Below are positions 716 through 43,347 of a stretch of 43,347 nt of DNA, one piece after another. The translations under genes were made by a program, and so were the position numbers. Under the pieces are notes generated by a model. It was not told the origin of the DNA, made no database searches, and worked only from the letters and a program-made list of their open reading frames with translations. The DNA is from a virus, in IMG/VR virus record IMGVR_UViG_3300022231_000013, positions 1 to 43,347 of that record; one strand, 5' to 3'. The stretch's first letter is position 1, and each line of letters opens with the position of its first letter.

Positions 716-3244
716 ATGTTTTCTATCGACGGCGGGTACAATATCCGCGAGGGCGACGATCGCATCATTTCGCAGCAGCGGGCGATCACAAAGGCAGTCA
801 ACGAAGGTTTCATTCAAGTAGGTGCCGTCTTCTTAAAACAAAGCGGCAAGATTCCCATCGACGGGGATTGGCACGGTCGAAATTTCCGCGACACCAATCT
901 GCAGGACTGGATAGACGACCCGGACTTCCGGTTCCACAACACCGGCTTCAATCTACAATTCGGCTGGACGGACGTCGACATCGATGTCGACGACCCCGAA
1001 TACAACGCCTGCCTCATTGCGGCGTTGGATCACTTAGGCGTAGATACGCGGTTCCGTTTCGGGCGCATGTCTGTGGGGTTCCCCACCCACGTATTGGTAC
1101 AGCTTGGTGAAGACGAGGCGTCTAATTTCGATGCCCTCACCAAGTTCGAACCCAAAGAATTTCGCATCAAAGGCAAACGGTTTAAGACGCAGATCAGGTC
1201 GTATTCTACGAACACCACTGCGTCCAATGTGGCTAAGACGGCCAAGCAAACGGTCATGCCGGGTTCCATCTACTCACACAAGAAGGAACACGGAGCTTAC
1301 GACATTTCGGCGTGGTACACTCAAGGCGGCGTTGTCGCCGAAAAAGTGAGCCAGATTGCGGCCACGACACCACGACGCGCGTCGTTTAACCAGATCGTCC
1401 GCGCCATCACATTCGCCACATTCCTATATGTCGTGAAAGATAGATGGGTGGAGGGGGAACGGCAGGCAATTGCAGCGAAAGTAGGAGGGTGGCTTGCACG
1501 CGTCGTAAAAGACAGCCGCGCCATGAACAACCATGAAGCTATCGCACAGGACGTATTTTGTCCCATCGACGATGATTCCATTGTTGACTCCCTTATACAC
1601 TTCGTTTGTGGATTTCAAGGAGACGAAGAACCCCATATGCGAGTGCGAGCGTACTATGACGCTGTTGCAAAGCTGGAACGAAATCCCGACGCCAAGATTC
1701 CCGGATGGCCTGCTATGGAGGCTTTGTTCGGAGGGGAGTGTGTTATTGCACTTCGGACCGTGTTCACCCCCGGAAGTGACGTTAGTGTGCTCAATGTTAT
1801 GGCAGAGAGGTACGTCTACGACGAAGCCGACAACCTGTACATCGATCGACGCAGACACTCCATGGATGGAAAGTTTGCGCACGAGTCTGGTGAACTCTAT
1901 ACACGCCACAAGGGAGACATCGTCCGTATTGCGGGCAAGCCACGCGAAGCTTTCAAGGTCTTTGAGTCCTCTGATATGCGAAAGCGTGTTGACCTTCGAT
2001 CACTTTACCCAGACTTATCGCCCGGAGGTATCTTCCGCATTAACTTCGCTGATGAAGTTCTACCAGACGACGTCGAAGACAGCGGGATGGTGATATTCAA
2101 CACGTGGCGCGGCTGGCCCATCGGCCCGACACAGGAAGTCAACGAAAAACTGATGCTGGAATGCGTCGAACGTCTGGACCGTCTACTCGGCTACATGACG
2201 CAGGACAACAAAAACCAGATTGAATGGTACAAGGATTGGGTGGCTTGGACATTCCAATTCCCCGGCAAGAAGCAACAAATCGCGCCGGTTTGCGTTGGTG
2301 GGCAGGGCGTCGGCAAATCGTTCTTCGGTAACACTGTGATGAAATCGCTGATGGGGCGGTTGTGGGGTTCCGCTTCGCCGAAAGTGATGGAGACCGGGTT
2401 TTCGGTGGAGCCATTCATCGACAAGATGTTCGTGTTCATCGACGAGGCTAAGTTCCACGGTGACGCAAGCACCGACGAAATTAAAAAGCTCATTCGAAAC
2501 ATCGACGTTGGTGGTGCCGAGAAGTTCCAATCCGCGCGGAATTTCCGGATATTCTCCCGGCTTATGTTCGCGAGTAACCGATACGACATGGGCGTCGGAC
2601 AATCTGGGGTGGTGGATCGAGCGTTGTTCTATACCAAAGCCTACGACCACGAGTTCCTCGGCATCACCGAAATAAAATTCCGTGAGTGGACCGAAACCCT
2701 GAAACCGTGGTTTGCGGAATACGCAGCGTTCCTTGAGCGCCGCGACGTGCGTGAACACTACATAAAGTACTTTATGGACCGCCCTGTGAACCAGCAGACG
2801 GTGGAAAGTATCAGGTACTCCAGCGCCAACGATGCGTCCATCGTCGCGGCCAACATGTCGTGGCCGCGCAAGATCGCAAAGAGGATCATCGAAGAAGGCA
2901 AGATCATGGATGGCGTGGCTCTGGAGGTTCCGTTCACCGAGCGCGACTTGAACGAGCGCGTCAACGAACTTGTCAAGGAAATGGGCATGCGGACGGTGCA
3001 GGGATCGCGCGTTCTGGCGGAGTTCCAGCAGGCTGGCATCCTTGGCGAAATCCGCAGCGGTTTTAAGCGCGCGTATCGGTTCACCCACAAGATCGGGGAC
3101 ACCACTCGTCTTTTCGGCGAAGCGATCAACGTCGAACTTTCGTCGCAGTTTGAGTTCACCGAAAACGACTACGGACCAAACGAAGCCGAAATAGGCGCGC
3201 GGCTGTCTTGGAAGGGGATCAATCCAGCCAAGGCGCAGTTCTAG
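716..3244 (+). CDS. DNA primase/polymerase-helicase fusion (prim-pol N-domain plus SF3/D5-type P-loop helicase), 842 aa
   Basis: N-terminal acidic motif GFNLQFGWTDVDIDVDD typical of bifunctional prim-pol domains. Walker A VGGQGVGKS and Walker B MFVFIDEA lie in the C-terminal half. The protein ends in ...AKAQF. Confidence 0.85.
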   Translation: MFSIDGGYNIREGDDRIISQQRAITKAVNEGFIQVGAVFLKQSGKIPIDGDWHGRNFRDTNLQDWIDDPDFRFHNTGFNLQFGWTDVDIDVDDPEYNACLIAALDHLGVDTRFRFGRMSVGFPTHVLVQLGEDEASNFDALTKFEPKEFRIKGKRFKTQIRSYSTNTTASNVAKTAKQTVMPGSIYSHKKEHGAYDISAWYTQGGVVAEKVSQIAATTPRRASFNQIVRAITFATFLYVVKDRWVEGERQAIAAKVGGWLARVVKDSRAMNNHEAIAQDVFCPIDDDSIVDSLIHFVCGFQGDEEPHMRVRAYYDAVAKLERNPDAKIPGWPAMEALFGGECVIALRTVFTPGSDVSVLNVMAERYVYDEADNLYIDRRRHSMDGKFAHESGELYTRHKGDIVRIAGKPREAFKVFESSDMRKRVDLRSLYPDLSPGGIFRINFADEVLPDDVEDSGMVIFNTWRGWPIGPTQEVNEKLMLECVERLDRLLGYMTQDNKNQIEWYKDWVAWTFQFPGKKQQIAPVCVGGQGVGKSFFGNTVMKSLMGRLWGSASPKVMETGFSVEPFIDKMFVFIDEAKFHGDASTDEIKKLIRNIDVGGAEKFQSARNFRIFSRLMFASNRYDMGVGQSGVVDRALFYTKAYDHEFLGITEIKFREWTETLKPWFAEYAAFLERRDVREHYIKYFMDRPVNQQTVESIRYSSANDASIVAANMSWPRKIAKRIIEEGKIMDGVALEVPFTERDLNERVNELVKEMGMRTVQGSRVLAEFQQAGILGEIRSGFKRAYRFTHKIGDTTRLFGEAINVELSSQFEFTENDYGPNEAEIGARLSWKGINPAKAQF

Positions 3245-6492: not shown

Positions 6493-6666
6493 ATGGAAAA
6501 CGACGAAGAAATTCGGAAAGTGCTGCTGTATCGGGATAACGCTCGGTTCAACCTGAGACGCACTCTCAAGCGAATTGAATGGGCACAAGAGGCTAAGACG
6601 AGCTACATGCTTGAAATTCAGGCTCTGCAACGAGAACTCTATGGATTGGGATACACCGGCTCATGA
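6493..6666 (+). CDS. hypothetical coiled-coil protein (57 aa, MENDEEIRKVLLYRDNARFNLRRTLKRIEWAQEAKTSYMLEIQALQRELYGLGYTGS)
   Basis: Read by hand because it is below the track cutoff. ATG lies 3 nt after the previous stop. Its TGA overlaps the polymerase ATG (tcATGAtt, 6663-6666). Confidence 0.55.
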   Translation: MENDEEIRKVLLYRDNARFNLRRTLKRIEWAQEAKTSYMLEIQALQRELYGLGYTGS

Positions 6667-8513
6667 TTAAAACAGGCGTCATCGACCCCGAGTTGGCCCT
6701 CCGTATCGTCCGTGAAGACCCCGTAATGGCTTACGACACGGAAACAACCGGCCTCACCGCCCGCGATCTGATCTGCGGGTACGTCTTCACTAATTGGGAG
6801 TTTTCGGTATATGTGCCAGTTCGACACGAAATGGGAGGAAATATCCCGAACCCGAGCGATTTCGAGGCTGCGTTGGCAGAGGCGTTCATGGAACGCCATC
6901 GTCTGGGCTACCGTACTGTTGGTCACCATCTTGGGTTCGACCTTCGTGCTTCCCTCCGACACGGTATTCGCATTCTCGGCCCCTGCGAAGACACACAAAT
7001 CAACGAAAGCCTCATCAACGATCGAACTGTCGGCTATTCCCTCGACGAGTGCGCTCAAAGACGCGGTGTCACGGCGAAAAAGGGCGATGCAATGTACCGT
7101 GCGATCGCCGCTCGGTTCGGGGGTCTTCCCGACAAGAAGTCGATGGCCAACTTCTGGCGCATGCCGGGGGACCAATTTGAAACCGTAGACTACGCTACGG
7201 GCGACGGTGTTTCGACGCTGGAACTGTGGCAGGTCCAGCAAAAAATCCTCGACGAGGAAGAACTACGTGTTCCGTGGCAACTGGAGTGCGATCTGCTGCC
7301 ATACGTCGCCCGCATCCACAACCGTGGAATCAAGATCGACAAAAATTACGCCGAAAAAGCGAAGTCCGACATCAAGGGCAGCATCGACGAAGCCAAGTCG
7401 AAATTTCCGCCCGGCTTCAACGTTCGATCGACCAGCGAGGTTTACGAACTATACAGGCAGAACGGATACACCGATGATCAATTCGCCCGCACTGAACCGA
7501 CTGCGAAGCACCCACAAGGCCAAGTTAGCTTCCGAGAAAAGTGGCTCGAAAAGAACGCTATCGGTAAAGCTATCCTTTCGGTGCGACAACTCGAAAAAGC
7601 AGAGTCGTCTTTTATTGCCCCGCTCGTCGAAACCCAAAACATCAACGGACGGGTTCATCCCGTTCTGCACCAGTCCAAGGGCGACGACTACGGCGTTGCT
7701 GGCGCTCGTTTTTCGTGCTCTGATCCGAACATGCAAGCGTATCCGAAACGCAACAAGGTTATCGGCAAGGTAGTTAGGCCGCACGTCATACCCGATGATG
7801 GTATGGTAATTGAAGAAGCAGATGCGATGCAGCAGGAGCCGCGCTTCTTCACCCACTATTCCCAAGACAAGGCGCTTCTTGAAGGCTATCGATCGGGCAC
7901 GATGGACATTCACGACCGGGCGTCTGAGGTTCTCGGCCTAGACCGAGACTACGCCAAGCGTCTAGGTCTCGGGATGCTTACGATGATGTCACCGCCTACT
8001 CTGGCGATGCATATGGATTACAGCATCGACGAAGCACGGCGCGACCACAAAGCGTTCTTGACGGAGGCTTTCCCTGACATCAAAAAGTTCCAGGACTTGG
8101 CGGTCGGGGTGTATAAGAAACGGGGCTTCGTCAAGTCTATTCTCGGGCGCAAAGCTCGCTGCGAAGACCCACGGTTCGCCTACCAAGCCGTGTCGCGCAT
8201 CATTCAAAACGGCGGCGGCGACCACCTCAAGGTTTGCTTGCTTCGGGCTTGCCAGTTCGAGGACGCGCATCCCGACGTCATTCAGTTGCTTCTAACCATC
8301 CACGATTCGCTCATCTGGCAGCGAGACCCCGGTGCCTTGAAGCAGCTCAAGGAGCTGATCGCCATCATCGAAAACGTGCCGCACGAGCCGCAATTCAACC
8401 TTTCGGTGCCGATCCCATTCGAGCTAGGTTCCGGCCTTCATTGGGCCGAAGCATCATATGGCGCGAAGCTCAAAGACAAGAAAGGGTGGGTCGGTGAACT
8501 CGCGAATATTTAA
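6663..8513 (+). CDS. family-A DNA polymerase with 3'-5' exonuclease (616 aa); candidate DpoZ-type enzyme
   Basis: Exo I AYDTETTGL. Motif A EADAMQQEPR. Motif B RDYAKRLGLGMLTMMS. Motif C LLLTIHDSLIW. C-terminal VPIPFELGSGLHWAEA matches Klenow VPLLVEVGSGENWDQA. Confidence 0.9.
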   Translation: MIKTGVIDPELALRIVREDPVMAYDTETTGLTARDLICGYVFTNWEFSVYVPVRHEMGGNIPNPSDFEAALAEAFMERHRLGYRTVGHHLGFDLRASLRHGIRILGPCEDTQINESLINDRTVGYSLDECAQRRGVTAKKGDAMYRAIAARFGGLPDKKSMANFWRMPGDQFETVDYATGDGVSTLELWQVQQKILDEEELRVPWQLECDLLPYVARIHNRGIKIDKNYAEKAKSDIKGSIDEAKSKFPPGFNVRSTSEVYELYRQNGYTDDQFARTEPTAKHPQGQVSFREKWLEKNAIGKAILSVRQLEKAESSFIAPLVETQNINGRVHPVLHQSKGDDYGVAGARFSCSDPNMQAYPKRNKVIGKVVRPHVIPDDGMVIEEADAMQQEPRFFTHYSQDKALLEGYRSGTMDIHDRASEVLGLDRDYAKRLGLGMLTMMSPPTLAMHMDYSIDEARRDHKAFLTEAFPDIKKFQDLAVGVYKKRGFVKSILGRKARCEDPRFAYQAVSRIIQNGGGDHLKVCLLRACQFEDAHPDVIQLLLTIHDSLIWQRDPGALKQLKELIAIIENVPHEPQFNLSVPIPFELGSGLHWAEASYGAKLKDKKGWVGELANI

Positions 8514-9168: not shown

Positions 9169-9580
9169 ATGGGTATCCGGAAATCTGAGGCCGAGTACAA
9201 AGGTGAGATGCGCGACGAAATCAACAGCGAGGGCGGGTTCGCTACGAGCATTGAGGACCAATATCGCGTGGGGATTCCCCGATCTTATACTTTGTATGCC
9301 GCAGACGGGAATCATTATCGCCGAGGCTAAGGTTTTCGATGGTAACATATTCCGGCCCCGATCGCGTCAATACATCGAAATGTGCCGTATCGAGGACGGC
9401 GGTGGGAAGACTGTTCTGATAGGGGTTAAGAACGATAAGCACTACTTGCACAGCCTGCTAAGGGATGATATACTTAGGGGTACGGTGCACAAGGACGACT
9501 GCATCGTACAGGATGACGATGAGTCATTCGTAGGAGTTTTCTTAAGATGGTTCAAGGAGACCAAAAATGAACGACAGTGA
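9169..9580 (+). CDS. PD-(D/E)XK nuclease (VRR-NUC / endonuclease-I-like) with an apparent +1 frameshift at CCCC 9277-9280; join(9169..9279,9281..9580), 136 aa
   Basis: Frame A reads MGIRKSEAEYKGEMRDEINSEGGFATSIEDQYRVGIP. Frame B continues DLILCMPQTGIIIAEAKV. Joined, they restore the nuclease motif GxPD...(E)xK. Neither frame alone contains the full motif. Confidence 0.6.
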
Positions 9581-10028
9581 CCACCGAAAAACCGCCAGCC
9601 ACGTGTTGCACACGGCCCATAAGGTCGTGACCACCGAAAGGGGGAACCAGCATGGCGGCGCGGAAGATAGCTTCCAGATGATCGGCGACCTGTGGGGCAC
9701 GTATCTGAGCAACACGAAGGACAACCAGGGTGCACAGCAGCGCATCCGGGTCACCGCCTACGACGTTGCGCAGATGATGGTCCTGCTCAAGATCGCCCGC
9801 GCAACACACGGCGACCCGCTCAACGATGATCATTACATCGACGCGGCGGGGTATACCGGCCTTGCGGCGGCGATCGCCGGGGTGAAGACGCCGGAGCAGA
9901 AGGCTGAGGCCGAAACCACCAAAGCTCTCGCCAAGGCGTTTTCGCCCGCCACCGAGCGTGCCGAAGCCAACGAGGGCCGCATCCCGGTTCAGAAGCCGGT
10001 ACTTCCCCGCAATCCGGAGCAGGTATAA
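9567..10028 (+). CDS. conserved phage protein (153 aa), DUF6378-like pattern
   Basis: Pattern ERGNQHGGAEDSF..IGDLWGTYL...YDVAQMMVLLKIARATHG...DDHYIDAAGYTGLAA. Its stop overlaps the purZ start (TAATG). Confidence 0.7.
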   Translation: MNDSDHRKTASHVLHTAHKVVTTERGNQHGGAEDSFQMIGDLWGTYLSNTKDNQGAQQRIRVTAYDVAQMMVLLKIARATHGDPLNDDHYIDAAGYTGLAAAIAGVKTPEQKAEAETTKALAKAFSPATERAEANEGRIPVQKPVLPRNPEQV

Positions 10029-11095
10029 TGGGACATTTCGACATGCGCCTTTTCGGTGACTACGGCATCCACGCTATCGCAGATGGCCAATTCGGTTCCA
10101 CCGGCAAGGGCGTCCTTGCTGCGTGGTTGGCTGCTCGTGCTGTCGAGCAGGACATTGACTTCCGGGCTTGCGTAAGCAACGCTGGCCCGAACTCCGGTCA
10201 CACGTTCTATCACAACGGCGAAAAACACGTGCTCAAGCAGCTGCCCACTTTCGCCGTGGCCGCGCATCTGCTCGGCATGGACATGCCCGTATTCCTTACA
10301 GCGGGGGCGGTGATCGACCCGGAAATTCTGTGGGCAGAGTGCGCCCGCTATCCGGGTGTGCAGGTGTTCGTCAACAACATGGCGTCGGTGATCACGCCGG
10401 AGGACAAACATTCCGAGGCTGACCCGGCTGGCAGCATAGCTGCAGTAGCCGGGACCCGCAGCGGCACCGGAATGGCCCAAGCGAACAAGATCATGCGCCA
10501 CCCGCGCGCTGTTTTCCGAAACATCGACCCGGCCCGCTTCCCCGCCAATCTGACGGCTTACACCAAGTGGGACCCGCTGATGACGGTGGACTGCGTCTAT
10601 TCGGGATGCACGTTCATGGAAATCAGCCAGGGTTTCTCGCTCGGCATCAATTCGGAGTTTTATCCGAAAGTAACGAGCCGGGAATGCACGGTGATGCAGG
10701 GCCTCGCTGATGCGCGGCTTCCGGCACGCGCTCTCACCCGGTCCTACCTTTCGATGCGGACTTATCCGATCCGGGTCGGCAACGTCGACGGTCATTCGTC
10801 TGGAGATTGCTACGACGATCAGGAAGAGATTTCGTGGGACAGCATCGGTCAGAAGCCGGAACTTACCACGGTGACGCAGCGGGAGCGTCGTCTCTTCACG
10901 TTCTCCCGCAAACAGGCTGAGGAAGCTATCGTCGCCAACGATCCTGATTTCGTCTTCCTGAACTTCATGAACTACCTCAACGAAAACGGGCAGGCATCGC
11001 TGCTTGGCCTTTTCGACGGGTTGAAGGACATCGGCGGGCGACAGTTCCAGATGATCCTCGGTAACGGCCCGACCAGCGACGACGTGGTGTTCTGA
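10028..11095 (+). CDS. purZ: PurZ, adenylosuccinate-synthetase homologue making N6-succino-2-amino-dAMP (355 aa)
   Basis: PurA motifs are conserved (AGPNSGHT, VAGTRSGTGMAQANK, MEISQGFSLG, YPKVTSRE, TTVTQRERR). The P-loop reads DGQFGSTGKG, with Ser in place of the PurA catalytic Asp. Confidence 0.8.
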   Translation: MGHFDMRLFGDYGIHAIADGQFGSTGKGVLAAWLAARAVEQDIDFRACVSNAGPNSGHTFYHNGEKHVLKQLPTFAVAAHLLGMDMPVFLTAGAVIDPEILWAECARYPGVQVFVNNMASVITPEDKHSEADPAGSIAAVAGTRSGTGMAQANKIMRHPRAVFRNIDPARFPANLTAYTKWDPLMTVDCVYSGCTFMEISQGFSLGINSEFYPKVTSRECTVMQGLADARLPARALTRSYLSMRTYPIRVGNVDGHSSGDCYDDQEEISWDSIGQKPELTTVTQRERRLFTFSRKQAEEAIVANDPDFVFLNFMNYLNENGQASLLGLFDGLKDIGGRQFQMILGNGPTSDDVVF

Positions 11096-11433
11096 TGGCA
11101 GACCGCATGGACGCGTTCAAAGAAATGGGGGCGTCGACACCGACGCCCTTCTTCAAATTCACCGTGTCGCTGGAAGGCGACATGGCCAAGTACGGCCCGG
11201 ACATTCGTCGCTTCGTCGACACGATGACGTACAAGCTGGAGAAAAATGTCCACAAGGGTAAGTGGGAAGACTTGGACATGACCACTGCTTTCCGGCGACT
11301 GATGGACGAAACTGAGGAACTGCGCCACGAAGTGGTCAATGGGAGCAACACCCTAAAGGTGATGCTTGAAGCCGCCGACGTCGCCAACTTCGCACTCATC
11401 ATTGCCGCCATGGCGATCGAGGGACGGAAATGA
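11095..11433 (+). CDS. mazZ: MazG-like nucleotide pyrophosphohydrolase (112 aa), MazZ candidate
   Basis: All-alpha MazG signature LMDETEELRHE ... MLEAADVANFALII. TGATG overlap with purZ and ATGA overlap with the next gene. Confidence 0.7.
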   Translation: MADRMDAFKEMGASTPTPFFKFTVSLEGDMAKYGPDIRRFVDTMTYKLEKNVHKGKWEDLDMTTAFRRLMDETEELRHEVVNGSNTLKVMLEAADVANFALIIAAMAIEGRK

Positions 11434-12005
11434 ACAAACACGAAAAAATTTGGAGCGAGTACGACGCTCGCCTTTCGGTGGTTCAACGTTGGGGCATCGC
11501 CCCGACCATCCAGAAGCAGAGCGTGGCGGAACACTGCTTCAACGTCGAAAGGATAGCCATCCGCATCGCCAAGGAATGGTTCGACATCGGCGGTCCGACG
11601 ACGGGCGACGGCTGGAAGTGGGAAATCGTCAAGTGGGCGCACCACCATGACGATCTTGAGGCCCTGATGGGTGATCCGCCGACTATGTCCAAGCCGTATT
11701 TCCTTGAGAAGGAAATGGCTGAGGATCATCAGGACCTTATTCCGCTTCGGGAGCCGCTCAACGCCGAAATAAAGGCGATCGTGAAACTGGCCGACCTGTT
11801 AGAAGGGTTCCGATTCCTGTGTATGGAACGCGCTCTCGGCAACTATTTTCTCGACGCCCATTGGGAAAACTACTTCACCGAAATAGAAAATCATATTCGC
11901 GCTTCCTGGCCCGATAAAGTGTCGTTTGTTTGGACCCGCGCCCACTCCTTCATGAATTATCTTTCGGCAATGAAATCCAAGCGTGAATCGCGGAGGGGGC
12001 GCTAA
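11430..12005 (+). CDS. datZ: HD-domain dNTP phosphohydrolase (191 aa), DatZ candidate
   Basis: HD-superfamily residues VAEHCFNV ... KWAHHHDDLEALMGD ... ; sits immediately after mazZ. Confidence 0.7.
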   Translation: MNKHEKIWSEYDARLSVVQRWGIAPTIQKQSVAEHCFNVERIAIRIAKEWFDIGGPTTGDGWKWEIVKWAHHHDDLEALMGDPPTMSKPYFLEKEMAEDHQDLIPLREPLNAEIKAIVKLADLLEGFRFLCMERALGNYFLDAHWENYFTEIENHIRASWPDKVSFVWTRAHSFMNYLSAMKSKRESRRGR

Positions 12006-13402
12006 TGTGGGAACCAAAAGGCGCACAGGTTGAAGCGTTGAAACGAAGCCGCGACAAACGCGGCTTCGGCTATTTTATGGAGCAGGGTCTTGGAAAGACT
12101 ACTACTACCTACGCTGATTTTCTGGACCACGGTCAACGCGGTTTTGTTGATCGCATGGTTACGCTCGCACCTAACTCTTTTAAAGGGGGCTGGGCGGATG
12201 AAGTCGACAAATTCGGGTTCCCTATTACTCCTATCGTCTTTGAATCAGGGAATACTTCTCATCTTAGTTCTTTGTTTAAGCGCGGGTTTAACACTCGTCC
12301 AAATCTTATCGTGAATTACGAGGCAATCCGCAGCGAAAGTACGCGCGACATCATTCGGGATTTTATTCGTGGGCGGGATTGTTATATCGCCGCCGACGAG
12401 AGCATCAAGCTCAAAGACCACGACAGTGCGCAGACCAAAGCTGCCCTGGAACTGTCCAAAGAATTCGCTTTCAGCCGCATCCTTTCGGGGAAGCCGATCA
12501 GCCAAGGTCCACATGACCTGTGGGCGCAGATGCGGTTCATCAAGCAACTGAACGGTAAGACGTTTTACCCGTTCAAGTCGGCGTTCTGTAAGATGGGCGG
12601 CTTCAAAATGAAGCAGGTCGTCGGAGCGCAGAACGAGGAAATCCTGGCCGAACTTATCGATCCGCACGTATTCCGCGCCACCAAGGCCGAGTGGACCGAC
12701 CTACCACCCAAGGTGTACACCACCCGCGAATATTCCATGACGCCGGAGCAGCGCAATCTGTACCGGCAGATGGAAGAAGAATTCGTTATTTGGCTCGGAG
12801 ACGGCGAACACGTCGCGGTCGATCAGGCTATTACGAAGTACATTAAACTAGCCCAAATCCAGGCTGGTTTCATCATCGACGGGGAAGGGAACACACGTAT
12901 CCTCGTCGACCCGGCGAAAAACCCACGCCTGAACGTTTTAGAAGACATCATCCGCGACGAAATCGTCGGCAAGGTTTCGGTGGTTTACAACCACAAGGTT
13001 GTTCGACCGATGCTCTACGAGCGGTTCGCGAAGTACAACCCGACCCATATTAGTGGGGGAATGACGCCGCAGGAAATTGAGGACAATAAGAGGAAGTTCA
13101 ACAATGACCCGACGTGTCGTATTATATTCCTCACAAAAGCGGCTAAGTATGGGCATACTCTATTGGGAGGACCAGAACCTCAAAACCATTGTTCGACGCA
13201 GATATTTTATGAGAACACGTATTCCCTTGACGACCGAAGCCAGATCGAAGATCGAAGTCATCGTTACGGCCAGCTTGGCGAATCAATGTCTTATTACGAT
13301 ATAGTCGGAACCCCGCTCGACAAAGCGGCGACGAAAGCACTGCAGCGAAAAGAAGGCGTGTTCCAATCCGTCTTCAAAAACATAGGGAAGCACAGACTAT
13401 GA
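12005..13402 (+). CDS. SNF2-family helicase/ATPase (465 aa)
   Basis: Motif I EQGLGKTTTT, motif II AADESIKLKD, motif VI QIEDRSHRYGQ. TAATG overlap with datZ. Visibly more A/T-rich than its neighbours. Confidence 0.85.
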   Translation: MWEPKGAQVEALKRSRDKRGFGYFMEQGLGKTTTTYADFLDHGQRGFVDRMVTLAPNSFKGGWADEVDKFGFPITPIVFESGNTSHLSSLFKRGFNTRPNLIVNYEAIRSESTRDIIRDFIRGRDCYIAADESIKLKDHDSAQTKAALELSKEFAFSRILSGKPISQGPHDLWAQMRFIKQLNGKTFYPFKSAFCKMGGFKMKQVVGAQNEEILAELIDPHVFRATKAEWTDLPPKVYTTREYSMTPEQRNLYRQMEEEFVIWLGDGEHVAVDQAITKYIKLAQIQAGFIIDGEGNTRILVDPAKNPRLNVLEDIIRDEIVGKVSVVYNHKVVRPMLYERFAKYNPTHISGGMTPQEIEDNKRKFNNDPTCRIIFLTKAAKYGHTLLGGPEPQNHCSTQIFYENTYSLDDRSQIEDRSHRYGQLGESMSYYDIVGTPLDKAATKALQRKEGVFQSVFKNIGKHRL

Positions 13403-32019: not shown

Positions 32020-32404
32020 CGTTATCCGCTTGAGTAATAACTTGAAGGTTGGACGGTACGTGGAGGCCACAAGAGTATTTGCCGTTTAAAGGCCAATAGT
32101 GGTCAACCACGTGGGGAACTCCAGTGCTTTCTGTTTTACCTCGGGCCTCAGCGTAAATACAATTCATTGCTGCATAGTCTGTGTCCGAATTAATCGTGGA
32201 CGCATATTTAATATTCCCTTGACGCTTGCGTGTGTACTCAGCGCGCTTGGCTTTGTTAGCTTCGTAATAAGCTTTATTGTAGGCGGATAGTTCGTCCTTC
32301 ATCGTCATACGACGAATTCTGCGCTCCACAGCGATGCGTTCCTTGTTGGCTTGATACCAATTATCGCGATATTCCTTGCTGCCGAACTTACCCATCGTGT
32401 TCAA
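31976..32404 (-). CDS. HNH endonuclease (142 aa) inserted between terS and terL
   Basis: VDHYWPLNGKYSCGLHVPSNLQVITQADNDAKGNK (H-N-N/H motif); visibly A/T-rich codons. Confidence 0.8.
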   Translation of the reverse strand: MNTMGKFGSKEYRDNWYQANKERIAVERRIRRMTMKDELSAYNKAYYEANKAKRAEYTRKRQGNIKYASTINSDTDYAAMNCIYAEARGKTESTGVPHVVDHYWPLNGKYSCGLHVPSNLQVITQADNDAKGNKEPEVWWGE

Positions 32405-32849
32405 TCACCGGTCCGTTGTCCGGCTGGAACGTCGTACCGTCGCCCCAAGCCAAAGAAATCGTGGCACCCTTTTGGTTGTTGATGGTGACTTTCGGCGCAC
32501 CCGTTCCGTAGCCCCGGTTCTTGCCTGGGCCAGTCAGAACAAACCGTGCCATTGCGTCTTGGCGACCTGTGTCGGCGGTGTCAGCCAGCGCTTCGTACAC
32601 AACATCCTCAGCCATATCGATGAGCTGTTCCCGAGCTTCATCAGCCTCCGCCGAAAGGTAGGGGGACTTCTTGATGAAATTCCGGAGACGGGCAGAGCTT
32701 ATTTTGAGCCGCTTGGCCGCTTCGGTAACATTGCCGCGCGACTGCCACAACGCCGTGCGGCATTCCTCGATGTCCAGCGGCAGGCTGTCAGGCCGCATGT
32801 TATACGGCATGGTAGGCAGCGGAACAAGGTCGTGGGGCAAAGAAGACAT
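32388..32849 (-). CDS. terS: terminase small subunit (153 aa)
   Basis: HTH-like RGNVTEAAKRLKISSARLRNFIKK; first gene of the late operon, upstream of terL. Confidence 0.65.
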   Translation of the reverse strand: MSSLPHDLVPLPTMPYNMRPDSLPLDIEECRTALWQSRGNVTEAAKRLKISSARLRNFIKKSPYLSAEADEAREQLIDMAEDVVYEALADTADTGRQDAMARFVLTGPGKNRGYGTGAPKVTINNQKGATISLAWGDGTTFQPDNGPVIEHDG

Positions 32850-34428: not shown

Positions 34429-34457
34429 ACTATAGCACACGCGCGCGGGCGCGTCAA
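34429..34457 (-). promoter_or_regulatory. sigma70-type promoter
   Basis: Minus strand reads TTGACG (34457-34452), 17 nt ending GC, TATAGT (34434-34429). The -35 box contains the TGA stop of the HNH gene. Confidence 0.6.
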
Positions 34458-34873
34458 GTAGGGGCGGAACCACGGAACTTGCCGTCCGGCGACCTGATAA
34501 CAGTTACTTTCCCATTCTTCCATGCCTGTTTACAGTTTAGTGATTGGCTTCCGTACATCAAATTATCGAGTGTGTTATTGTCACGATTGTCGTCCCGATG
34601 TAGCACGTTCATACCAGGGGGCCGTGGCCCGATGAACAGTTTTGCCACTTCTTTGTGGACTAACAATGTTTTCTTTTTAAACTCCCCACTCGGCAATTTG
34701 TCCGGTAGTTTTACGTTGAAGCCAAGGTATATTCTTTTGCCGTGATTGGCTCCCTTGTTTACCCGTTTCAATCTCCGACGAACCCACGTTCCAGTTAACA
34801 TTGATTCGACGTTACCCAAATTAGACACACGATACATCGGGTGCTCCGGTATTACACGAAATTCTTCTTGCAT
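34454..34873 (-). CDS. free-standing homing endonuclease, NUMOD4 + HNH_3 type (139 aa)
   Basis: MYRVSNLGNVES (NUMOD4-like) and VLHRDDNRDNNTLDNLMYGSQSLN (HNH_3-like); visibly A/T-rich relative to its flanks. Confidence 0.8.
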   Translation of the reverse strand: MQEEFRVIPEHPMYRVSNLGNVESMLTGTWVRRRLKRVNKGANHGKRIYLGFNVKLPDKLPSGEFKKKTLLVHKEVAKLFIGPRPPGMNVLHRDDNRDNNTLDNLMYGSQSLNCKQAWKNGKVTVIRSPDGKFRGSAPT

Positions 34874-42287: not shown

Positions 42288-43304
42288 ATGCCGATCACCA
42301 TCCACCACACCACCAAAAAGAGCGCCGAAAAACAGGGCGTCCTGCTCGAAGTTGACGGCTCGACTGTCCGCGCGTTCATTCCGAAGAACGGCACGGCTGT
42401 TTTCGGCGTATCGGGGCAGGATGCACTCAAGCAGGTGCTCGCAGCGCAGGAATTGTTCACCAAGTCCAGCGAAAACGTGCGTTACCGCCACGGCGACGAT
42501 CCGAAAATTCGTGGCAAGTTGGAAAAGAACGGTAAGACAGGGAATGCCGAGCCGTCGATCACGGAAGGCACACCGGTCGAGCTGCTCGCCCTCTGGGAAG
42601 CCGGGACGATCGAATGGGATGACGCTCCGGTTACGATTGACTGGGACGAAAAGCTGATCGTCGACAACATCGAGGACACGCTGCCGGACGGCGGACCCAA
42701 CTCTGGTTTCGTTGAGGACGAACACCCCAAGGAACCGGCTGTAGACAGCCGCCCCGTCATCAGGCGCGCTGAGAACGGCGTGGCTCTGGACGGCGCTGTC
42801 GCCTATCGCGAGGGCATCACGGCGGCGGACTGCCCGTATTCCTCTGAGACCGACGACGAGGAAGAATACGCCAACTTCGAGCGCTGGAACGAAGAATGGG
42901 ACGCCGCCGCAGACGCCGCCGAGGAAGAAGAGTCGGAAGGCAAAGGCGGCTCGGTGGTCAAGTCCAAGTACCGCGAAAAGTACAAAGAACTCGGCCACCC
43001 GACCCATTGCGGCGACTGGCTGGCGGAACTGCTCAACAACTACTGCATCGGCGACAAGAACACCGATCTGGAGACGTTCGAGCGCATCTGCAGCCTGAAC
43101 GGCGTCGACACCAGCAAGTACCGCCGCGAGGGCGTCGGTTGGCAGGGGCGCATTCGGATGACGGGCCGCAATCTGCTCGCTAAGCGCGTGTTTTCGGCGG
43201 GTAAGATCACCGTGCCGAACACGGATGGCGGGGAACCCATCACGCTCGACGCTCCTGCCGACTGGATGGCTGCGCAACGTTACAACAAGCCCGAGACGAA
43301 GTGA
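42288..43304 (+). CDS. paralog-family protein 3 (338 aa) with Rmf-like CPY motif and an acidic linker
   Basis: AYREGITAADCPYSSE...FERWNEEWDAA (Rmf-like). C-terminal GSVVKSKYREKYKE...DWLAELL...FERICSLNGVD...GWQGRIRMTGRNLLAKRV. Confidence 0.75.
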   Translation: MPITIHHTTKKSAEKQGVLLEVDGSTVRAFIPKNGTAVFGVSGQDALKQVLAAQELFTKSSENVRYRHGDDPKIRGKLEKNGKTGNAEPSITEGTPVELLALWEAGTIEWDDAPVTIDWDEKLIVDNIEDTLPDGGPNSGFVEDEHPKEPAVDSRPVIRRAENGVALDGAVAYREGITAADCPYSSETDDEEEYANFERWNEEWDAAADAAEEEESEGKGGSVVKSKYREKYKELGHPTHCGDWLAELLNNYCIGDKNTDLETFERICSLNGVDTSKYRREGVGWQGRIRMTGRNLLAKRVFSAGKITVPNTDGGEPITLDAPADWMAAQRYNKPETK

Positions 43305-43347
43305 TGGACACCGGCCTGATCTGGTACGCAATTTACGGAGTGGCGGG
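43304..43347. repeat. terminal direct repeat, right copy
   Basis: exact 44-nt copy of nt 1-44; indicates a circular assembly overlap or a short DTR. Confidence 0.95.

Follow-up and report, generated by a model that had tools for sequence, protein, structure and literature searches.

The window analysed here, that is, the whole 43,347-nucleotide stretch of IMG/VR virus record IMGVR_UViG_3300022231_000013, carries three overlapping genes, purZ, mazZ-2 and datZ, that resemble the phiVC8-type cluster for the modified base 2-aminoadenine (Z). On the basis of this cluster, it is highly probable that the virion DNA contains 2-aminoadenine in place of adenine. The three open reading frames (ORFs) lie on the + strand at 10028..11095 (ORF1, purZ, 355 aa), 11095..11433 (ORF2, mazZ-2, 112 aa) and 11430..12005 (ORF3, datZ, 191 aa), exactly where an earlier sequence-only reading had placed them, and all are full length and intact. 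That reading took the trio for the published Z-cluster; the assignments held in alignment, profile and phylogeny, and the gene order matches the one described (PMC8342488). The order purZ-mazZ-datZ was also found in S-2L, phiVC8, Ochrobactrum phage vB_OspP_OH (OH) and every metagenomic relative examined. Judged by the PurZ scores and this recurring gene order, the match of the cluster is far above chance. Knowledge of the Z pathway dates from 2021, and Z-genome phages have been described as at least seven groups; the window adds a divergent member of this known system and no new kind of system.

ORF1 was compared with adenylosuccinate synthetases of phages and cells. A phmmer search of the Protein Data Bank (PDB) returned PurZ of phiVC8 (E = 4e-46) and S-2L (4e-41), then 7VF6, a 'PurA-like adenylosuccinate synthetase' (2e-19), and archaeal PurA (7e-16), bacterial PurA being no better than 1e-7. 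The PHROG match was phrog_1211 (PurZ; 1.6e-51), and the best NCBIfam model was NF038379 (PurZ), with 217 bits against 107 for archaeal-type PurA; phiVC8 PurZ itself reached 397. The PurA motifs listed in the sequence-only reading are all present and align with Escherichia coli PurA as it had proposed (DGQFGSTGKG with QWGDEGKGK, PNSGHT with HNAGHT, AGTRSGTG with GTTGRGIG, SQGFSLG with AQGTLLD, YPKVTS with YPYVTS and TTVTQRERR with GATTGRRRR). Ser24 occupies the position of the catalytic Asp13 of PurA (QFGS24TGKG versus QWGD13EGKG in E. coli). A Ser at this position has been reported in 100% of phage PurZ and PurZ0 proteins, whereas Asp13 is 99% conserved in true PurA (PMC12884076). Further published determinants of PurZ are the strictly conserved T273-T276 (TTVT) and R280, a pocket for ATP or dATP as donor (N305-F306-x-Q308; N297 in phiVC8) that replaces the motif with which PurA and PurZ0 bind guanine, and, for selection of deoxyribose, R240-V241 ahead of a loop that has an insertion when compared with PurA (PMC8342488). 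ORF1 has the TTVT loop (T280-T281-V282-T283) where E. coli has GATT, together with H58 and R287/R288, and its donor pocket reads N312-F313-M-N315 in place of the guanine-binding TKLD of PurA. R249-V250 is invariant, and the loop that follows is longer than in E. coli PurA and shorter than in S-2L.

The Ser-for-Asp exchange had been put forward as the hallmark of PurZ. The residue is indeed present, but Ser alone cannot tell PurZ from PurZ0, because the PurZ0 proteins of Arthrobacter phage Wayne and Gordonia phage Archimedes carry it too, with a GSEAKG P-loop and an L[TS]M[LA]D donor pocket. At the level of donor-pocket motifs, NFxN of PurZ stands against a PurA-like Asp motif in PurZ0. In a neighbour-joining tree (330 columns, 500 bootstraps; two PurZ0 and one PurA as outgroups), the window fell in the PurZ clade with 96% bootstrap support, apart from PurZ0 and PurA; the OH-like subclade was supported at 100%, and the window's own branch was long. 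Tree and NFxN pocket agreed in placing ORF1 in PurZ proper, and the Asp was not restored by alignment. These data support ORF1 as a putative PurZ, an N6-succino-2-amino-2'-deoxyadenylate synthase that would form its product (dSMP) from dGMP, Asp and ATP or dATP.

The identification of ORF3 as an HD phosphohydrolase of the DatZ type was confirmed by its best PHROG family, phrog_7076 (dATP triphosphohydrolase; 3.7e-16, next family 1.9e-6), and by retention of 12 of the 13 published determinant residues. In S-2L DatZ, the metal is bound by H34, H66, D67 and D119 and the triphosphate by R19, K81 and K116; specificity is conferred by W20, which excludes a 2'-OH, I22, which excludes a 2-amino group, and P79, and conservative substitutions are allowed at the specificity positions (PMC8065100). 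The equivalent residues in ORF3 are H35, H73, D74 and D122 for the metal, R20, K88 and K119 for the triphosphate, and W21 (deoxy-selecting) and I23 (2-amino-excluding) for specificity; the structural residues Q29, A32 and G74 of S-2L DatZ are also kept. It should be noted that the triphosphate contacts alone do not separate DatZ from YfbR, because YfbR has both Lys. In the PDB, ORF3 matched YfbR at 9.6e-5 and S-2L DatZ at 1.3e-4, and the NCBI YfbR model gave 28.5 bits for authentic S-2L DatZ and 29.9 bits for ORF3. This tie is uninformative, since the authentic DatZ scores equally weakly on that model. Among the 30 tblastn matches of DatZ listed, most were beside a PurZ-annotated gene or in phages that were also among the PurZ matches. 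The evidence supports ORF3 as a candidate HD-domain dATP triphosphohydrolase (dATP to dA and PPPi).

For ORF2, the predicted family, a MazG-like pyrophosphohydrolase, was borne out, and the type proved to be MazZ-2 of phiVC8 and not the characterized MazZ-1 of S-2L. The ORF2 family profile aligned with phiVC8 p26, the MazZ-2 archetype, at an hhalign probability of 97.5% (E = 6.6e-12), and the gene lies between purZ and datZ, as in phiVC8. With MazZ-1/DUF550, the hhalign probability was only 37% and covered the metal-binding core alone. A motif E72-x2-E75-x16-E92-x2-D95, invariant in 47 homologues, aligns with E35/E38/E50/D53 of S-2L MazZ, and the terminal R111 with R83. ORF2 had no match in Pfam or NCBIfam and none by phmmer against the PDB even at E ≤ 10. 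PF04447 matches S-2L MazZ and not phiVC8 p26, OH gp33 or ORF2, which agrees with the published statement that MazZ-2 has no Pfam model. A profile search of the PDB found AF_0060 (4.6e-4) and a MazG-related protein (0.04). The AlphaFold2 model (predicted local distance difference test, pLDDT, 88) has three helices, and its top Foldseek matches were MazG-related, HisE and dCTPase proteins, with a best E of 0.05 for this small helical protein modelled as a monomer; no Foldseek match reached E ≤ 0.001, and S-2L MazZ ranked 23rd with a template modelling (TM) score of 0.25. The start codon of mazZ-2 is uncertain, since there is little conservation and low pLDDT over residues 1-27. MazZ-1 (DUF550, PF04447) was also considered for ORF2 and rejected: PF04447 did not match, I56 and D60 of S-2L MazZ are absent, and the hhalign probability was the 37% mentioned above. 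Our results support ORF2 as a MazZ-2, probably an all-alpha MazG-like NTP pyrophosphohydrolase, and its position, co-conservation and catalytic residues suggest that it supplies dGMP from dGTP. Separately, phage phiM5, which has no purZ, encodes a stand-alone DUF550 protein adjoining a helicase (32126-32593 of locus L027), showing that the MazZ-1-type domain occurs outside Z-clusters too.

Upstream of the cluster, at 6663..8513 (+), lies a family-A DNA polymerase (PolA) with a 3'-5' exonuclease (PF00476, 3.5e-39). It shares 59.3% identity with its OH counterpart; the next phage polymerases share 27-29%, and nearly all of them come from phages among the PurZ matches. The best model was NCBIfam NF038380 (DpoZ), with 261 bits versus 160 for Pol I, phiVC8 DpoZ scoring 909. 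DpoZ of phiVC8 is distinguished by three insertions (G349-G353, A442-P448 and P473-K491), by L455, F459 and G548, and by R161 (or K) and M165 in helix E2 (PMC8599892). The window polymerase keeps insertion 1, Leu at L455, Lys at R161 and Met at M165. Its Leu at the Klenow F762 position is thus like L455 of phiVC8 DpoZ. At the position of the helix-O tyrosine (Klenow Y766), PolA has Thr or Ser across the OH-like clade, the window's motif B reading 'AKRLGLGMLTMM'; the two known DpoZ clades have Phe there, and ordinary PolA and that of phiM5, a non-Z phage, have Tyr. In a small tree with two outgroups, DpoZ-1 of Wayne and PolA of the non-Z Sinorhizobium phage phiM5, the OH-like clade was supported at 100% and was sister to phiVC8-type DpoZ-2 at 84% bootstrap. 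We therefore filed the window enzyme as DpoZ-related rather than as DpoZ; it is presumed to be the replicase that would incorporate dZTP. S-2L reaches full substitution with a non-selective PrimPol, since DatZ removes dATP (PMC8065100), and thereby shows that the polymerase need not be selective if DatZ is there.

Taken in pathway order, MazZ-2 would hydrolyse dGTP to dGMP, and PurZ, to judge from its conserved active-site residues, would condense dGMP and aspartate, with ATP or dATP, to N6-succino-2-amino-dAMP. Host PurB, a host nucleoside-monophosphate kinase and nucleoside-diphosphate kinase, which complete the route in other Z-phages, may then turn this product into dZTP. DatZ, whose catalytic and specificity residues are conserved, is predicted to strip dATP to deoxyadenosine, and the DpoZ-related polymerase would replicate the genome from a pool with dZTP and essentially no dATP. 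From such a pool, virion DNA would carry 2-aminoadenine instead of adenine; Z forms three hydrogen bonds with T, and the DNA would be expected to resist many restriction enzymes with A:T in their sites. The chemistry of PurZ, that of DatZ and the completion of the pathway by the host are established in other Z-phages, and the three S-2L enzymes are sufficient to introduce Z into the DNA of E. coli (PMC8342488). By homology, we infer that the orthologues in the window share these activities, that its PolA accepts dZTP and that its virions carry Z.

An indirect line of evidence came from palindrome avoidance. Since Z shields only sites with A:T pairs, we compared 6-bp palindromes composed of G/C only with those containing A/T; expected counts were taken from a maximal-order Markov model, and the observed/expected (O/E) value of the G/C-only class was divided by that of the A/T-containing class. 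In the window, the O/E was 0.43 (61/143) for G/C-only and 0.78 for A/T-containing palindromes (ratio 0.55). The other purZ datasets gave, in the same order, 0.13 and 0.85 for OH (ratio 0.15), 0.21 and 0.80 for pooled OH-like loci (0.26), 0.44 and 0.91 for SH-Ab 15497, in which Z is proven (0.48), 0.20 and 0.84 for a fragment of phiVC8, Z also proven (0.23), 0.26 and 0.88 for PMBT28 and BUCT555 together (0.30), and 1.01 and 0.92 for S-2L, again with proven Z (1.10). Phages without purZ gave 0.93 and 0.68 (phiM5; 1.37), 0.93 and 0.74 (RHph_Y25; 1.25), 0.54 and 0.45 (pCB2047-A; 1.22) and 0.52 and 0.74 (Pseudomonas TL; 0.70). Selective avoidance of G/C-only sites was thus seen in six of the seven purZ datasets and in none of the four non-purZ podoviruses, Pseudomonas TL being intermediate; of the few datasets, some were related to each other and some were small, and the controls differed in host and lifestyle. 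The five most-avoided sites in the window were all G/C-only. Within this class, CCCGGG occurred 0 times against 14.9 expected, CCGCGG twice against 19.2 and GGGCCC once against 7.4, while GCCGGC, CGGCCG and GGCGCC occurred 4 times each against 14-17 expected. No clear difference between the classes was observed for 4-bp palindromes. The pattern puts the window on the purZ side and, being indirect with regard to a Z-genome, may be regarded as supportive only.

Several points weigh against the reading that this phage has a Z-genome. The PurZ score of ORF1 (217 bits) is below the 300-bit cutoff of NF038379, an operational threshold of one model and not a biochemical criterion; in so divergent a lineage, PurZ would not be named by automatic annotation. 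The polymerase, at 261 bits, is below the 500-bit cutoff of NF038380, lacks DpoZ insertions 2 and 3 and has Ser for G548 and Thr for F459, the latter position having been located by a gapless count from the invariant motif-B lysine. The guanine determinants of MazZ-1 are not kept in ORF2, where I56 is N98 and D60 has no counterpart, and we found no assay of any MazZ-2 in the literature; P79 of S-2L DatZ is Met86 in ORF3 (Met in OH, Val in phiVC8). As for palindromes, the proven Z-phage S-2L avoids neither class, the window shows the signature less strongly than OH does, and the window's O/E of 0.78 for A/T-containing sites is near the non-Z range of 0.45-0.74. Our literature search found no base analysis for the OH-like clade, the 2020 paper on OH included, and no paper linking PurZ with Ochrobactrum; OH does not occur in one small supplementary file of a 2026 survey. 

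Some of these points would fit a cluster that works with only partial substitution, where a non-selective polymerase and incomplete depletion of dATP leave a mixture of A and Z. The departures of PolA from DpoZ and its score below the cutoff are in line with this, as are the mild avoidance of A/T-containing palindromes that persists in the window and the only 4-23% substitution obtained with the S-2L triad in E. coli (PMC8342488). However, S-2L itself is fully substituted with its non-selective PrimPol as DatZ removes dATP (PMC8065100), the window DatZ keeps the catalytic and specificity residues with Met for P79, and substitution is complete in the three phages whose pathways have been worked out (PMC12884076), so we regard a mixed genome as rather improbable. 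Scores below curated cutoffs could also be taken to mean that the cluster is a remnant, decaying or not expressed, in a phage that packages ordinary DNA; yet the genes are intact, coupled and preceded by GGAG-type ribosome-binding sites, the active-site residues are invariant in 12 clade members that share 55-73% identity, which indicates purifying selection, and the cluster is kept in every relative examined, which makes decay very unlikely.

Two further explanations concern the identity of the enzymes. In the 2020 OH paper, the genes were read as ordinary nucleotide-salvage or auxiliary functions, a PurA-like synthetase, an NTP pyrophosphatase and a 5'-nucleotidase, which would boost the supply of dNTPs and leave the bases unaltered. 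Pfam indeed gives only generic Adenylsucc_synt and YfbR-like assignments, and ORF3 matches YfbR in the PDB as well as it matches DatZ. This explanation has little to recommend it, since the paper is earlier than the discovery of PurZ, the Asp13 that is 99% conserved in true PurA (PMC12884076) is Ser in ORF1, TKLD is replaced by NFxN, the tree excludes PurA, and authentic S-2L DatZ is equally weak on the YfbR model. Finally, a GTP-dependent, archaeal-like intermediate of the PurZ0 type, in an actinophage-style pathway, would share the Ser substitution and the TTVT loop with ORF1, which also matches 7VF6 at 2e-19. The P-loop of ORF1 is, however, GSTGKG and not GSEAKG, its pocket is NFxN and not L[TS]M[LA]D, and 96% bootstrap support separates it from PurZ0; a PHROG scan of 37 ORFs showed no dutZ, dmtZ or DUF5664 partner, and the partners present, DatZ and MazZ-2, typify PurZ genomes. 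A PurZ0-type synthetase is thus hardly credible here. A phiVC8-type Z-cluster with a Z-containing genome is the reading that we prefer.

Compared with known Z systems, the window has in common with phiVC8 the order of purZ, mazZ-2 and datZ, the same MazZ subtype, a family-A polymerase upstream and an N-type donor pocket in PurZ (N297 of phiVC8 corresponds to N315 of the window). Identities to phiVC8 are 34-37% for PurZ and 29-36% for DatZ. On the other hand, phiVC8 DpoZ has insertions 2 and 3, F459 and G548, all missing from the window polymerase, and phiVC8 has no DUF6378 gene beside purZ; a Z-genome is experimentally proven for phiVC8 and predicted for the window. S-2L also has overlapping purZ, mazZ and datZ genes in this order, and the catalytic and specificity residues of DatZ and the signature residues of PurZ are common to both phages. 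However, its MazZ is of the DUF550/PF04447 type with I56/D60 and extra C-terminal strands, in contrast to MazZ-2 of the window, and S-2L is a siphovirus with a non-selective PrimPol, no PolA and no palindrome avoidance, whereas the window is a podovirus with PolA. Acinetobacter phage SH-Ab 15497 and Salmonella phage PMBT28 resemble the window in that a pyrophosphohydrolase and then an HD hydrolase come after PurZ, with DpoZ upstream (a DpoZ-related enzyme in the window), and in G/C-only palindrome avoidance; their PurZ proteins are about 34-36% identical to that of the window, and in place of a 112-aa MazZ-2 they have a pyrophosphohydrolase of 290-385 aa in which DUF5664 and DUF550 are fused. 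The PurZ0 actinophages Wayne and Archimedes have, like the window, Ser in place of Asp13 and a TTVT loop, and differ from it in the GTP-type pocket, GSEAKG, the partners DutZ/DmtZ/DUF5664 and DpoZ-1; their synthetases are 27% identical to that of the window (25-31% by tblastn).

The genes of the cluster are tightly packed. The overlapping stop/start codons described in the sequence-only reading are TGATG at 11093-11097 (purZ/mazZ-2) and ATGA at 11430-11433 (mazZ-2/datZ), and the coupling goes beyond the trio in both directions, with TAATG at the DUF6378/purZ and datZ/SNF2 helicase junctions. Given stop/start overlaps at all junctions, five genes, DUF6378-purZ-mazZ2-datZ-helicase, are translationally coupled and would be expressed together with the replication module; GGAG-type ribosome-binding sites stand ahead of the coupled gene starts. 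The DUF6378 gene (9567..10028, +; PF19905, 2.8e-24), whose stop overlaps the purZ start, is also found directly upstream of purZ in OH and in the metagenomic loci L006, L007, L008 and L018. Its product has a strongly conserved motif, TERGNQHGGAEDSF...DVAQMM.LLK.AR. A relationship to DUF5664 was considered for this protein and rejected, as there was no Pfam DUF5664 match at E ≤ 10 and the hhalign probability was 0.2%. DUF6378 is outside the known components of the Z pathway; passages that mention it for Faecalibacterium, Klebsiella and Brucella phage genomes make no link to Z-DNA. The SNF2-family helicase downstream (12005..13402, +; PF00176, 4.4e-16; phrog_62, 1.1e-86) belongs to the replication module, and its position is conserved in OH and the metagenomic relatives. 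A scan for promoters and terminators showed no clear operon boundaries, with 3 promoter-like sites against 2.9 expected by chance. A terminator-like hairpin at 12044-12068 (+), with a 10-bp stem of which 8 pairs are G:C, followed by GCTATTTTAT, sits approximately 40 nt into the helicase ORF, just past the Z-cluster. The region has 19 terminator-like sites against 9.8 expected, and the hairpin could be an internal attenuator or a chance occurrence.

The ends of the window are identical (1-44 = 43304-43347), leaving 43,303 unique bp, and the window is therefore a complete genome, either a circular assembly or one with short direct terminal repeats. It is the genome of a virulent-type podovirus related to OH (Wolominvirus OH, NC_070933). 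PHROG matches included primase, family-A polymerase, SNF2 helicase, endolysin, ejection protein and HNH endonuclease, as well as the structural and packaging proteins major capsid, scaffold, portal and large terminase. The 37 ORFs scanned included no further nucleotide-metabolism gene and no methyltransferase, and no tRNA was found in the window. The DNA primase of the replication module (716..3244, +; phrog_1156, 8.3e-20) is 57.6% identical to OH gp22, a 'DNA primase-polymerase'. The HNH endonuclease (34454-34873, -; phrog_1492, 8.6e-21) lies among small early or late genes, and no OH homologue of it was detected. The two genomes are collinear over primase, PolA, DUF6378, purZ, mazZ-2, datZ and SNF2 helicase, and in both the structural block is inverted and placed after the replication/Z module. 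Homologues in OH were found for 29 of the 47 window ORFs tested, at 29-76% protein identity (PurZ 59.5%, MazZ-2 46.6%, DatZ 49.5% and PolA 59.3%), and RefSeq names the OH homologues PurZ and DatZ. At the nucleotide level, megablast showed no similarity between the window and OH, and 9500-12500 had no megablast match in 50,697 phage records. OH is 41.2 kb long with 55-bp terminal repeats, compared with 43.3 kb and 44-bp identical ends in the window, and has an additional 90-aa ORF (gp34) between mazZ-2 and datZ that is absent from the window. An ORF of 63-90 aa is found at this place in OH and three metagenomic relatives, with no family match (9338-9610 in L001, 7397-7588 in L006, 7460-7657 in L007 and 7319-7558 in L008); in the window, mazZ-2 overlaps datZ directly at 11430-11433.

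Relatives are abundant in metagenomes. At least 120 PurZ protein clusters with 53-72% identity were found, many of them on contigs of 42-45 kb; the nearest metagenomic PurZ is 72-73% identical, and at least four independent metagenomes yielded an ORF2 identical to that of the window with the same neighbouring genes. Judging from these matches, the window phage is a member of a large uncultured clade. With regard to the host, a scan of bacterial and archaeal genomes with a single protein found nothing, and a scan with an alignment yielded no more than distant purZ-like loci in metagenome-assembled genomes (MAGs) and gave no host assignment. The locus L020 (CAZHOE010000001.1, 4001-5005) is on a 1.0-Mb contig of an uncultured Micavibrio MAG; its PurZ-type gene has the P-loop QFGSTGKG, the donor pocket FINFVNY and 36% identity, no DatZ, MazZ-2 or PolA homologue was found within 4 kb, and it could be a prophage gene or a cellular purZ. 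The locus L024 (JAHFKN010000011.1) is an 11.8-kb contig binned as Candidatus Gottesmanbacteria, on which PolA (42%), PurZ (43%), DatZ and SNF2 helicase are arranged as they are in the window; the contig probably comes from a phage, placed in a MAG by a binning error, and is probably a more distant representative of the window's architecture. The sequence GANTC, which we take to be the CcrM methylation site of Alphaproteobacteria, is scarce in the window, with 55 occurrences against 113 expected from the Markov model and 164 from base composition, and is depleted in OH, phiM5 and RHph_Y25 as well. The nearest relatives of the portal protein are from phages of Sinorhizobium, Rhizobium, Sulfitobacter, Octadecabacter and Pelagibacter. 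Together, the GANTC depletion and the portal relatives hint at an alphaproteobacterial host.

The known picture of the Z pathway is unchanged by these results, which add modest extra interest through MazZ-2, an atypical polymerase and a large clade in which Z-genomes are predicted. As a joint and rather speculative proposal, which taken as a whole we consider possible but doubtful, the OH-like podoviruses may be a large uncultured lineage with Z-genomes and, probably, alphaproteobacterial hosts, their PolA may represent a third type of polymerase that incorporates Z, adapted independently of the others, and depletion of G/C-only palindromes may predict Z-genomes from sequence. The idea of a third type comes from the combination, in OH-like PolA, of insertion 1 and Leu at Klenow F762, as in DpoZ-2, with the lack of insertions 2 and 3 and with Thr or Ser in helix O. 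A polymerase that departs from characterized DpoZ in this way could help to show what confers preference for Z over A, and the clade offers a compact, naturally coupled purZ-mazZ2-datZ cassette. OH can be grown on Ochrobactrum sp. POC9, and its availability in culture makes the reading directly testable. If virion DNA is Z-substituted, the known effects of Z-DNA, that is, restriction resistance, a higher melting temperature and an altered nanopore signal, would be expected in these phages, and the preparation of metagenomic libraries may be biased by it. ZTGC-DNA would then extend to a populous group of podoviruses, with at least 120 PurZ clusters, whose hosts are probably Alphaproteobacteria in the neighbourhood of Brucella/Ochrobactrum and Rhizobium.

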